Below the pieces are notes generated by a model. That model was not told the DNA's origin, did not search any database, and saw only the letters and a program-made list of their open reading frames with translations. A stretch of 38,986 nucleotides of DNA, from positions 1 to 38,986 of the forward strand of contig CAIUCY010000018.1 in assembly GCA_903897765.1 (NCBI GenBank). Direction: 5' to 3'. The stretch's first letter is position 1. Every line of letters begins with the position of its first letter. Positions 20,046 to 21,299 of the stretch are shown here, one piece after another. The stretch comes from an uncultured Candidatus Marinamargulisbacteria bacterium. GTDB taxonomy: Bacteria; Margulisbacteria; Riflemargulisbacteria; GWF2-35-9. Both the position numbers and the translations under genes were made by a program.

Positions 20046-20336
20046 TTAGCAGCATCCGCCGCCTGAACAACCACACGTGGGCTCTGTTCCTTTGACCACG
20101 CCAAGTATAATGCCTGCAGCACAACCCACACCCTTTTTTACGTAAATTGCCTCTGCCACACAGTTGGTTTGGCAGGCACCACATTCCATGCAACGATCTA
20201 GGTCGAGTACGGTGGCTTTCTTTTCTTGGAGGGCAAACACATTATGAGGGCAAACCACAACACACATGCCGCAGCCGATACATTTATCGACATTCAGGGT
20301 TAGTGTTGAAACGTTTTTTAGATAAGTAGTTTGCAT
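20046..20336 (-). CDS. hgcB: Mercury methylation ferredoxin HgcB
   Basis: Two CX2CX2CX3C motifs (CIGCGMCVVVCP, CMECGACQTNC), a GVGCAA segment and a C-terminal GGGCC. Starts 3 nt downstream of the hgcA stop. Confidence 0.85.
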   Translation of the reverse strand: MQTTYLKNVSTLTLNVDKCIGCGMCVVVCPHNVFALQEKKATVLDLDRCMECGACQTNCVAEAIYVKKGVGCAAGIILGVVKGTEPTCGCSGGGCC

Positions 20337-20339
20337 AAT

Positions 20340-21299
20340 TTATCCTATGAGTCGCAGCGCCATAAACCAGACTATTCCCATAACAAGCGCAGCCAGTTGC
20401 AAGGGAACCGCGAGCCTCATTTCTTTTTGAACCCCTGATAAAGACGTGTATGTTGATGAGCCGGTAAAGTTCATCGCGATGAAAGAGCTGATAGCCGTCA
20501 TAATGAGTAGCCAAGGCGTCATGATAGCGCTGATGAGCATGACCAAAACAATCCCGACAAGCGCCCCTTTTGCCGAGAAGCTTCGGAAGGGAATCCAAGG
20601 TAAGCAGATCGGGGTGATAGCGACCCCCCCCACATAGGCCAAAACGGTGTTTCGAAGAATGATCTTTGCTTCATGGGCGTCAAAATATAAACCGTTATGA
20701 TGAAAAATCGAAAGGCCGGTTAGGAACAACGCAAGAAGCAGTGTTGGCAACACAAAGCCAACCAATTCGACAGGAATTAAGACAAACCGATCCCGCAAAG
20801 GGAATCGCACCTGACGCATTTCGGGGGTTGCGTTCATTTCATTTATTAAGAAGGTGGACAAGTCCTCGGCTCGCACAGGGCCAAAGACCACTTTAAAGCC
20901 GGTTTGTTTTTTGATCTCATGGGCAGCTACACCCACCGCGCCAAGTTGGGGAAGGATAAGGGTTCGATGAGCGACGACCTCAGAGAGATGTGTCGCCTTG
21001 AGCCGTGTAATCAACTCGTCAGTGCCAAAGGTGCCTTTACCAGCTGCACACCAGACATTAACCCCCTTGGTGTCGAGGACAAGAATATACAGATTGAAAC
21101 CAACCAGCTTGGAACGAACAATATCAAACGTCAATTTATAATTGGCCGTAACAATAACAGGACTGTTTTCGTCAGGTTCACCCAGAGCATATAACCCAGG
21201 TTCCTTCATATAGATCGTTCGTCCTATGCCCCAACGAACCTTTATGCTACCCAATCTGTCGGACAGAGAAAGCGTCGAGGACGTTTTTATTATGCTCAT
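20340..21299 (-). CDS. hgcA: Mercury methylation corrinoid protein HgcA
   Basis: LDTKGVNVWCAAGKGTFGT contains the N(V/I)WCA(A/G)GK cap-helix signature. N-terminal CFeSP-like domain followed by about 5 TM helices. Start set at ATG 21299. The track start at 21392 would overlap the divergent gene and contain the promoter. Confidence 0.88.
   Translation of the reverse strand: MSIIKTSSTLSLSDRLGSIKVRWGIGRTIYMKEPGLYALGEPDENSPVIVTANYKLTFDIVRSKLVGFNLYILVLDTKGVNVWCAAGKGTFGTDELITRLKATHLSEVVAHRTLILPQLGAVGVAAHEIKKQTGFKVVFGPVRAEDLSTFLINEMNATPEMRQVRFPLRDRFVLIPVELVGFVLPTLLLALFLTGLSIFHHNGLYFDAHEAKIILRNTVLAYVGGVAITPICLPWIPFRSFSAKGALVGIVLVMLISAIMTPWLLIMTAISSFIAMNFTGSSTYTSLSGVQKEMRLAVPLQLAALVMGIVWFMALRLIG

Follow-up and report, generated by a model that had tools for sequence, protein, structure and literature searches.

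The DNA analysed here carries a putative hgcA-hgcB pair, and it raises the question whether this pair is a genuine mercury-methylation system and what in the locus goes beyond what is known about such systems. The window, i.e. the whole stretch that was analysed, is a contig of 38,986 nucleotides from an uncultured Candidatus Marinamargulisbacteria bacterium. Judged from its sequence, the pair is genuine, and it is an ordinary representative of the known two-gene mercury-methylation system. What is new is a third co-operonic gene, encoding a DUF134 protein, and an operator-like palindrome, both of which were absent from the first-pass annotation of this DNA. The genes concerned are the following.

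hgcA-hgcB-DUF134, minus strand: three-gene candidate operon with gaps of 3 nt and then 1 nt
20340..21299, minus strand: hgcA, 319-aa corrinoid protein (NF040863, PF03599, CFeSP alignment, motif and hydropathy)
20046..20336, minus strand: hgcB, 96-aa 2x[4Fe-4S] ferredoxin (NF040864, motifs, 3-nt gap to hgcA)
19742..20044, minus strand: DUF134/UPF0251 gene, 100 aa, PF02001 match, candidate metal(loid)-sensing autoregulator

A search with curated models, which the first-pass annotation had proposed as a check, was passed by both proteins: HgcA scored 416.8 bits against the HgcA_corrinoid model NF040863 (cutoff 275, E 5.6e-125), and HgcB 122.5 bits against the HgcB_ferredoxin model NF040864 (cutoff 99, E 4.7e-36). 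These low E-values and the scores above the cutoffs exclude chance matches. HgcA also matches PF03599, the CFeSP-like corrinoid-binding domain (63.8 bits, cutoff 24.8), and aligns to the gamma subunit of CFeSP (2h9a, E 1.3e-12). It contains GVNVWCAAGKGTFGT, and its residues 81-88 form the cap helix NVWCAAGK with Cys84 inside, in agreement with the earlier assignment of the signature N(V/I)WCA(A/G)GK. In an alignment of 20 HgcAs, N81, V82, W83, C84, G87 and K88 are invariant, whereas in the CFeSP alignment DTKGVNVWCAAGKGTF of HgcA lies opposite DTDGTSVLTAWAAGKF of CFeSP, thus the cap-helix Cys is not common to CFeSP. Loss of this Cys on proper alignment had been named as an outcome that would speak against HgcA; the Cys is kept in both alignments. 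Kyte-Doolittle hydrophobic blocks were found at about 170-198, 216-240, 243-282 and 296-318. The block at 243-282 (~40 residues) would fit two helices, and the C-terminal domain thus probably has about five TM helices, a count taken from the Kyte-Doolittle scan alone, which is a crude method. Together with the PF03599 match, this arrangement is the one described before, a soluble CFeSP-like domain followed by about five hydrophobic helices. Sequence matching against solved structures found CFeSP entries and no HgcA.

As previously noted, a 96-aa ferredoxin is encoded 3 nt downstream of hgcA (20336..20046), and it has the two cluster motifs, the GVGCAA segment and the C-terminal vicinal Cys pair ascribed to it. 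The motifs are CIGCGMCVVVCP at residue 19 and CMECGACQTNCV at residue 49, with all eight cysteines there; the second has Val in place of the Pro of the literature motif. Cys72 is within GVGCAA, and the C-terminus, CGCSGGGCC, contains Cys88, 90, 95 and 96. The defining residues of the two families are the strictly conserved cap-helix Cys of HgcA (Cys93 in ND132) and, in HgcB of ND132, Cys73, which is located about 12 residues past the second motif, plus at least one C-terminal Cys (PMC7305189). Cys72 of the window HgcB is the equivalent of ND132 Cys73. Metagenome contigs, at least 13 of them and drawn from several samples, encode an HgcB identical to that of the window.

The pair resembles HgcA/HgcB of Pseudodesulfovibrio mercurii (Desulfovibrio desulfuricans) ND132 and Geobacter sulfurreducens in having unfused adjacent genes, NVWCAAGK with the Co-ligating Cys, about five TM helices, a dicluster ferredoxin and C-terminal cysteines. 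It differs from them in the second HgcB motif without trailing Pro, in the four tail cysteines and in its Margulisbacteria host. The nearest HgcAs found outside Margulisbacteria, which come from several phyla, are only ~46-55% identical to that of the window. The large subunit of CFeSP (AcsC/CdhE; PDB 2h9a, 4djd) has a homologous corrinoid-binding domain with a cap helix, and this homology to CFeSP gamma could be taken to mean that the two genes encode a paralogue of the CFeSP or HgcAB-like kind without methylating activity. We consider this extremely improbable. HgcA scores 84.6 bits against the CFeSP gamma model, below its cutoff of 306, and CFeSP lacks the cap-helix Cys and the TM domain, has an Fe-S domain of its own and is part of the Wood-Ljungdahl pathway. 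The HgcAB-like fusion (NF043039) consists of related corrinoid and ferredoxin modules, but in the window the proteins are separate and score 203.9 (HgcA) and 53.8 bits (HgcB) against a cutoff of 285. With its two unfused genes and the complete set of diagnostic sequence features, the pair agrees with the earlier statement that the system is known and not new.

The host is an uncultured freshwater Candidatus Marinamargulisbacteria, and a syntenic MAG has an HgcA of 89% identity. The previously described context of LPS, SLH and F-type ATPase genes was borne out, as LpxC, LpxB, FabZ-LpxA, an SLH protein and F-type ATPase subunits are encoded in the window, and the host indeed falls outside the classic methylator guilds. 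Its novelty was overstated, however, because hgcA+ Margulisbacteria were already known from Lake Mendota (Peterson et al. 2020) and a Margulisbacteria protein already carries the name HgcA at NCBI. As one more hgcAB in a phylum already known for hgcAB, the enzyme pair adds little. We know of no cultured Margulisbacterium.

The control of hgcAB expression and the native role of the pair are open questions in mercury biogeochemistry, and to our knowledge the only hgcAB regulator that has been tested is the ArsR-like protein of one Desulfovibrionaceae strain. The upstream neighbour of hgcA in the window is a divergent HAD phosphatase gene, and two elements were recognized in front of hgcA.

21306..21334, minus strand: sigma-70-type promoter, -35 TTGACA (21334..21329), 17-nt spacer, -10 TATTAT (21311..21306)
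21292..21307, minus strand: operator-like palindrome ATGCACATATGAGCAT, 16 bp, candidate operator

The promoter matches the consensus at 11 of 12 positions, better than any other site in 18800-21600. Its -10 box ends 6 nt before the hgcA ATG, and the -35/-10/ATG geometry is kept in five other loci (L007, L087, L089, L170 and L008). The palindrome overlaps the final 2 nt of the -10 box and includes the start codon (21299..21297). Both this position of the start codon, inside a palindrome abutting the -10 box, and the 6-nt distance imply that the hgcA mRNA is probably leaderless, and hgcA is, to judge from promoter geometry, probably translated from such an mRNA. The general remark on leaderless promoters made earlier is thus supported for hgcA itself. 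The apparent lack of a leader would also account for the mis-started hgcA calls (289-350 aa) made by gene callers, a point of practical importance for annotation. The ORF length given before was 320-350 aa, with its end at 21299. Started at this position the protein has 319 aa, whereas the ORF 21392..20340, counted from its first ATG, has 350 aa. The start at 21392 was rejected. The additional N-terminal codons would cover promoter and operator and run into the divergent HAD gene, and relatives show no coding conservation in this stretch. The match to the HgcA profile sets in at Met 21299, the protein that starts there fitting the profile from position 2.

In its general form the 16-bp palindrome reads ATGCACATATG(A/T)GCAT. 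The window has a single site with at most 3 mismatches from ATGCACATATGTGCAT, where 0.16 would be expected, and ATGCACNNATGNGCAT occurs at 8 independent promoters, each time abutting the -10 box (0.07 expected in the 2.33 Mb of compared loci). These promoters are those of Margulisbacterial hgcA and of DUF134-led ars operons of other phyla (L172-L174); in L008 the second half-site is degenerate (ATGCACAAATGAGCGA). The palindrome was found neither in the 162 other loci compared nor at the 75 hgcA loci without an adjacent DUF134 gene. Among the compared loci it is thus confined to promoters of operons containing DUF134, in at least 4 phyla, and on the basis of this co-occurrence we propose that it is the DUF134 operator.

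The third gene matches PF02001 (66.3 bits, cutoff 27). Its ATG follows the hgcB stop after 1 nt (TAA-C-ATG), a coupling that is conserved in the relatives. The protein has four cysteines, Cys11, Cys22, Cys92 and Cys93, which are kept in 117-121 of 121 homologues. Its predicted model has a sigma-70 region-4-like HTH core, resembling sigma-70 region 4, DeoR-N and KorA; model confidence is low in the tails, where the Cys lie. A sequence search for solved DUF134 structures gave weak HTH matches only, and literature searches for DUF134, UPF0251, PF02001 and COG1342 returned incidental mentions, none of them functional.

It is worthwhile to compare this protein with ArsR2, the ArsR-like regulator that is co-transcribed with hgcAB in P. 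mercurii ND132. Both are small HTH proteins encoded in an hgcAB operon, linked to ars and presumably thiol-based metal(loid) autoregulators. ArsR2, however, is a PF01022 winged helix encoded upstream of hgcA, whereas the window candidate is encoded downstream of hgcB and is a PF02001 protein with a sigma-70 region-4-like HTH and without a match to PF01022 (ArsR/SmtB HTH_5 winged helix), therefore it is an analogue and not a member of the ArsR/SmtB-type hgcAB regulators. The proposed DUF134 operator overlaps the hgcA start codon, unlike in the ArsR2 system. We infer that DUF134 takes the place of the ArsR-like hgcAB regulator without being homologous to it.

The link to arsenic genes is seen in the contexts of the family. 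Close DUF134 homologues lie directly before ars genes (arsC, acr3, arsP, arsDA) in all eight contexts sampled, a small sample chosen from long contigs, and homologues with 57-65% identity are encoded at the head of ars operons of other phyla. In Margulisbacteria the hgcA-hgcB-DUF134 order is conserved over an HgcA identity range of 51-89%. The MAGs GCA_028715625.1, GCA_028706105.1 and LJ_bin-3332 share this order, the promoter and the palindrome with the window; the three genes of LJ_bin-3332 differ from those of the window in ~15% of their nucleotides. In Margulisbacterial relatives arsC and/or acr3 come after DUF134: acr3 is kept there in GCA_028715625.1 and GCA_028706105.1, the latter also having arsC, whereas neither gene is present at this place in LJ_bin-3332. 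Both are gone in the window, which encodes no ars and no corrinoid-supply genes, and in the Marinamargulisbacteria MAG L007. More generally, acr3 and/or arsC are found within a few kb of ~44 of 80 species-level hgcA loci.

Taken as a whole, the proposal of a three-gene hgcA-hgcB-DUF134 operon with a Hg-methylating pair, a leaderless mRNA, control by DUF134 and its operator, and an origin in an ars operon appears to us reasonably probable. HgcA would be a membrane-anchored corrinoid protein whose cap-helix Cys84 ligates cobalt ('Cys-on'). Reduction through the 2x[4Fe-4S] ferredoxin HgcB would produce the Co(I) corrinoid, which would be methylated by SAM and then pass the methyl group to Hg(II), yielding methylmercury, while Cys72 and the C-terminal Cys pair of HgcB would handle Hg(II) and CH3Hg+. 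This chemistry is inferred from family membership and from analogy with the purified P. mercurii enzyme, for which SAM-dependent Hg methylation is the sole activity demonstrated (PMC11588087). Transcription from the near-consensus sigma-70 promoter would give a leaderless hgcA mRNA. DUF134, as a small HTH repressor, would bind the ATG-containing palindrome adjoining the -10 box, and would leave the DNA once its four Cys have captured As(III) or a different thiophilic metal, perhaps Hg(II), filling in this way the role of the unrelated ArsR-like hgcAB regulator in Pseudodesulfovibrio. The ancestral arrangement may have been an operator-DUF134-arsC-acr3 operon into which hgcAB was placed, the ars genes being lost later in the lineage of the window.

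A more specific version of this proposal is that the four-Cys DUF134/UPF0251 proteins are an unrecognised family of As/Hg-responsive repressors with the operator ATGCACATATGTGCAT, and that hgcAB was captured by an ars operon, between its operator and its regulator gene, giving a leaderless metal(loid)-inducible transcript. To our mind this could be right or wrong with equal probability. If true, the mercury-methylation genes of Margulisbacteria would be transcribed without a leader and induced by metal(loid)s, with DUF134 as an ArsR analogue, and an unrelated regulator family would lend independent support to the view that hgcAB evolved within metalloid stress physiology. Already the presence in an hgcAB operon of an unrelated, uncharacterised DNA-binding family that heads ars operons in several other phyla offers a first hint at the function of DUF134 and a convergent line of evidence linking hgcAB to arsenic, and the exact candidate operator overlapping the hgcA start makes the regulatory hypothesis directly testable.

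The four Cys of DUF134 could equally hold an Fe-S cluster or Zn, for which such a set of ligands is also typical, and would then belong to a redox sensor or a structural site. DUF134 might accordingly be an Fe-S/redox sensor, or a mere neighbour of hgcAB with the palindrome being bound by another factor or serving as a promoter or translation feature. The low confidence of the modelled Cys-bearing tails, the lack of a characterised family member in the literature and the thioredoxin and DsbD genes that accompany some DUF134 operons would fit such a reading, which we nevertheless think unlikely: the restriction of the palindrome to promoters of DUF134-containing operons, its absence from hgcA loci without an adjacent DUF134 gene and the conserved 1-nt coupling to hgcB all speak against it. 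Somewhat less doubtful, but still only a tentative possibility, is that the hgcAB pair is genuine and has a native role other than Hg methylation, such as the handling of arsenic or other metalloids, or a different corrinoid-dependent reaction on methyl groups or halomethanes, MeHg then being a by-product. At the sequence level this reading fits our preferred explanation and differs from it only on native function. The ars-type regulator and promoter of the operon and the frequent proximity of acr3 and/or arsC to hgcA speak for it, as does the finding that hgcAB of ND132 responds to arsenic and that the knockout strain has raised As(V) sensitivity; in addition, a 2026 preprint reports halomethane dehalogenation by methylators. 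On the other hand, Hg methylation is the only activity shown for purified HgcAB, and in the window and L007 the pair is still under purifying selection after the loss of the ars genes (dN/dS against L007 0.11 for hgcA, 0.14 for hgcB and 0.23 for DUF134), thus hgcAB is valuable without adjacent ars genes.

The first-pass annotation also suggested that the locus is a small accessory insert. The elements downstream of DUF134 are the following.

19020..19688, minus strand: 222-aa ORFan, 53 nt after DUF134, GC 0.336, operon membership uncertain
18902..18978, plus strand: tRNA-Pro(GGG), found by ARAGORN and Rfam, borders the variable segment

No rho-independent terminator was found after DUF134, therefore the end of the operon is undefined. 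The ORFan holds the place of arsC-acr3 in the relatives. It has no Pfam, NCBIfam or PHROG match, and the only homologues found were identical copies from the same population. L007 is syntenic with the window over LpxB-AspK...SLT-BacA with protein identities of 77-97%, has the tRNA-Pro at the same position and carries a toxin-antitoxin pair and other cargo at the place of the ORFan.

The suggestion of an insert is supported only in part: hgcAB occupies the same neighbourhood in all three syntenic lineages, and only the ORFan segment between DUF134 and tRNA-Pro varies. We regard it as improbable that hgcAB came in recently on a small genomic island that integrated at tRNA-Pro, even though the locus adjoins the tRNA and lineage-specific cargo lies in between. 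The GC content of the hgc genes (0.48-0.52) and of the ORFan (0.336) deviates from that of the window (0.444), but the values of the hgc genes are inside its normal range of 0.38-0.52. The dS of hgcA, hgcB and DUF134 (0.42-0.58) is about half of that of the flanking genes (0.92-1.16), distant Margulisbacteria have the cassette in other neighbourhoods, once beside an integrase, and HgcA identity falls to ~55% against many different phyla; all these would be consistent with an island. Against it, no integrase or transposase family was matched by the ORFs flanking hgcAB (18800-23400), and the direct and inverted repeats in this region, including copies of the tRNA-Pro 3' end, were short ones at chance level. 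Moreover, hgcA is on the same SLT/BacA side in the three lineages, with HgcA identities of 65-100%. A single metagenome scan, for which aspartate kinase was the anchor, revealed no empty site in a close relative. It yielded one syntenic relative, L090 (69%), which is free of hgcAB, but its synteny ends at mem188, therefore it is too distant to define insertion borders.

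The first-pass annotation had called an hgcA-hgcB pair at 20046-21299, and this call was correct. Both genes are encoded on the minus strand; the two-gene description holds for the pair itself, but a third gene, encoding a DUF134 protein, had been overlooked. The genes considered here are:

21392..20340, minus strand: hgcA ORF counted from the first ATG, 350 aa
21299..20340, minus strand: hgcA from the Met at the end coordinate of the first-pass annotation, 319 aa
20336..20046, minus strand: hgcB, 96 aa, its ATG 3 nt past the hgcA stop
20044..19742, minus strand: DUF134/UPF0251 gene, 100 aa, the hgcB stop reading TAA-C-ATG into its start
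19020-19688, minus strand: ORFan, 222 aa, GC 0.336

HgcA matched PF03599 (Pfam) and passed the HgcA_corrinoid NCBIfam equivalog (416.8 bits, E 5.6e-125; cutoff 275), whereas it stayed under the cutoffs of the paralogue models, HgcAB-like fusion (203.9 bits; cutoff 285) and CFeSP gamma (84.6 bits; cutoff 306). A motif check found GVNVWCAAGKGTFGT, with NVWCAAGK as residues 81-88 and Cys84 inside. A sequence search of the PDB detected no HgcA structure, the top matches being CFeSP gamma chains; in the alignment with CFeSP gamma DTKGVNVWCAAGKGTF stands opposite DTDGTSVLTAWAAGKF, thus the cap-helix Cys is HgcA-specific. In 20 aligned HgcAs from many phyla N81, V82, W83, C84, G87, K88, G89, T90, F91, G92 and T93 are invariant. 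The four hydrophobic blocks in residues 170-318 (hydropathy scan), one of them about 40 residues long, are consistent with five predicted TM helices.

HgcB passed its own equivalog (HgcB_ferredoxin, 122.5 bits; cutoff 99), matched Fer4 families (Pfam), and carries CIGCGMCVVVCP, CMECGACQTNCV, Cys72 in GVGCAA and the tail CGCSGGGCC (motif check). Its sole departure from the published CxxCxxCxxxCP description (PMC7305189) is Val for the second Pro; the roles of HgcA Cys93 and of HgcB Cys73 and Cys94/95 are taken from the same paper. HgcB has been reported to hold two [4Fe-4S] clusters, and SAM to be the methyl donor of the purified ND132 complex (PMC11588087). At least 13 contigs from JGI, ENA and Logan samples carry a gene for an identical HgcB. 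Since the equivalog and paralogue scores agree and the cap-helix Cys is in place in the CFeSP and 20-HgcA alignments, none of the sequence-level signs of a non-methylating paralogue was found. Judged from sequence, the two proteins are almost certainly true HgcA and HgcB, and they are likely to be able to methylate Hg; the system is, as had been said, a known one.

The DUF134 protein scored 66.3 bits against PF02001 (Pfam cutoff 27). Among 80 species-level hgcA loci searched by tblastn, two Marinamargulisbacteria MAGs alone (L007, which is LJ_bin-3332, and L008) have a DUF134 gene adjoining hgcB, and in a third locus, L056, it is about 2.7 kb off. The order hgcA-hgcB-DUF134 recurs in two further Margulisbacteria MAGs, GCA_028715625.1 (HgcA 67%) and GCA_028706105.1. 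Both of them, and L008 as well, have acr3 (SBF) after DUF134, with an ArsC-type LMW phosphatase gene ahead of acr3 in L008 and GCA_028706105.1. Elsewhere, DUF134 proteins 57-65% identical to that of the window lead ars operons. Counting these together with the three Margulisbacteria loci, arsenic genes lie immediately 3' of DUF134 in all eight contexts that were sampled from other lineages than that of the window. The operons led by DUF134 are:

DUF134-arsC-acr3-arsD-arsA: ars operon with DUF134 first
DUF134-methyltransferase-acr3/arsC fusion: WOR-1
DUF134-ArsP-thioredoxin: Omnitrophica
DUF134-ArsP-thioredoxin-DsbD-acr3-arsC: PVC bacterium
DUF134 upstream of thioredoxin, DsbD and arsC: Pseudomonadota MAG

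The whole 39 kb of the window lacks arsC and acr3 (tblastn); the ORFan, known from the window's population alone, is found in place of ars genes. Four cysteines are near-invariant in 121 DUF134 homologues (Cys11 in 121, Cys22 in 117, Cys92 in 119, Cys93 in 117). In the AlphaFold model (pLDDT 78) residues 30-89 form a three-helix HTH core predicted with confidence, and the Cys-bearing tails are of low confidence. The modelled core is similar to sigma-70 region 4, to the N-domain of DeoR and to KorA; DUF134 is therefore no ArsR/SmtB winged-helix protein.

It is known from the literature that hgcAB can lie beside ars genes and that an ArsR-like regulator can be co-transcribed with it; in P. mercurii ND132 this regulator responds to arsenic and S-adenosylhomocysteine. 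Our tblastn count accords with the published co-localisation: about 44 of the 80 loci (L009-L085), which come from many phyla, have acr3 and/or arsC no more than a few kb from hgcAB. The DUF134 protein differs from the ND132 regulator in family and position, and in having a defined candidate operator. The literature search found no paper tying DUF134, UPF0251, PF02001 or COG1342 to arsenic or hgc. What the locus may add is, on this comparative basis, a putative DUF134 regulator, its operator and a leaderless start.

Of all sites in 18800-21600, TTGACA-17 nt-TATTAT at 21334..21306 on the minus strand is the best promoter match (11 of 12 positions); 6 nt lie between the end of its -10 box and the hgcA ATG at 21299. 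A palindrome, ATGCACATATGAGCAT (21307..21292), overlaps the final two -10 bases, and its second half is the start of hgcA (ATG AGC AT). The same 16-mer in the same geometry is present at hgcA of L007 and of the compared loci L087/L088, L089 and L170; in L008 it is degenerate. The DUF134-led ars operons L172 and L173 have the perfect palindrome ATGCACATATGTGCAT directly after the -10 box, L174 has ATGCACTTATGTGCAT at the same place, and all three have an ordinary Shine-Dalgarno leader downstream of it; the variant in L171 is ATGAACGTATGTTCAT. For the pattern ATGCACNNATGNGCAT the expectation over the 2.33 Mb of compared loci is 0.07 occurrences; it was observed at 8 independent promoters only, and it is absent from the 75 hgcA loci without a detected adjacent DUF134 gene. 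In the window the palindrome is the sole site at up to 3 mismatches (0.16 expected). A variant, ATGAACATGTGTTCAT, occurs about 6 kb upstream of hgcA in a Bacteroidales locus (L068, 4117-4132), in which no DUF134 gene was detected by tblastn; this variant may be a chance match.

This distribution suggests that the palindrome would be the DUF134 operator and the operon autoregulated. We consider it somewhat probable that DUF134 regulates the operon in this way, and propose only tentatively that it responds to As(III) or Hg(II) as ligand, not to an Fe-S/redox signal. Transcription of hgcA would begin at about its own A(+1), giving a leaderless mRNA. Such a start would explain why public gene calls (21292-21392, minus strand) give the product 289, 308, 316, 319 or 350 residues. 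It seems that leaderless starts are systematically mis-called in the window's lineage, which could distort hgcA catalogues made from predicted proteins.

The locus had also been described as a small accessory insert. A tRNA-Pro adjoins it, and the segment from DUF134 to this tRNA, a variable hot spot (19020-19688, minus strand), holds the ORFan in the window and a RelE-like toxin-antitoxin pair, a 250-aa protein and fragments in L007 (11600-13600). In L089 a methyltransferase and a ParE pair take the place of the window's HAD and G1PDH-like genes, the GC of the hgc genes (0.48-0.52) is slightly above that of the window (0.444), and in distant Margulisbacteria the cassette occurs in other neighbourhoods, once next to an integrase. 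By a crude Nei-Gojobori estimate from one sequence pair (window 19742-21299 vs L007), dS is 0.42-0.58 for hgcA, hgcB and DUF134, about half of the 0.92-1.16 of AspK, mem188, HAD and G1PDH-like; this could reflect codon constraints or a later exchange of the cassette between these lineages. However, neither an integrase nor an att-like repeat was found near hgcAB, no empty site was found, the cassette is under purifying selection (dN/dS 0.11-0.23), and hgcA occupies one common neighbourhood in three lineages with HgcA identities of 65-100%. We therefore read hgcAB-DUF134 as a cassette mobile over long time scales and located beside a hot spot, and not as a recent insertion in this genome.

The top species-level genome match is LJ_bin-3332, an uncultured Candidatus Marinamargulisbacteria MAG (HgcA identity 88-89%). 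Its flanking genes are in synteny with those of the window (LpxB 84%, AspK 96%, mem188 89%, HAD 77%, G1PDH-like 93%, orf78 97%, SLT 83%, BacA 91%), thus the host assignment does not depend on hgcA alone. Marinamargulisbacteria are a class in the phylum Margulisiibacteriota, of the Cyanobacteriota/Melainabacteria group. The suggested LPS, SLH and F-type ATPase context was borne out by LpxC, LpxB, a FabZ-LpxA fusion, an SLH protein and an F-type ATPase encoded in the window. This host context is uncommon but not new, because hgcA+ Margulisbacteria from Lake Mendota were already given as novel putative methylators (bioRxiv 10.1101/2020.04.01.018762) and a 67%-identical Margulisbacteria protein is already labelled HgcA by NCBI.

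Divergent from hgcA (21379-23090, plus strand) are genes for an MtnX-like HAD-IB phosphatase, which scored 122 bits on TIGR01489, and for an Fe-ADH_2 protein resembling glycerol-1-phosphate dehydrogenase. The latter, unusual for a bacterium, reached 235 bits on NF002022, short of the cutoff (413); the pair is retained in L007 and missing in L089. The FabZ-LpxA fusion (14655-15890, plus strand; 411 aa) lies in the lipid A cluster and combines FabA/FabZ-like and LpxA-like (hexapeptide, Acetyltransf_11) domains (Pfam). An ECF-type sigma factor gene (Sigma70_r2/r4_2; 32784-33455, minus strand) lies 312 nt ahead of a same-strand gene for a 165-aa protein (31974-32471) matching PF13801 Metal_resist and LTXXQ, and the two may form a periplasmic metal-stress module. 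A Fic/DOC protein is encoded beside an AAA_14/DUF4143 ATPase (35712-37964, minus strand), and a spore-photoproduct-lyase-like radical SAM protein, odd in a non-sporulating lineage, at 28867-30117 (plus strand).
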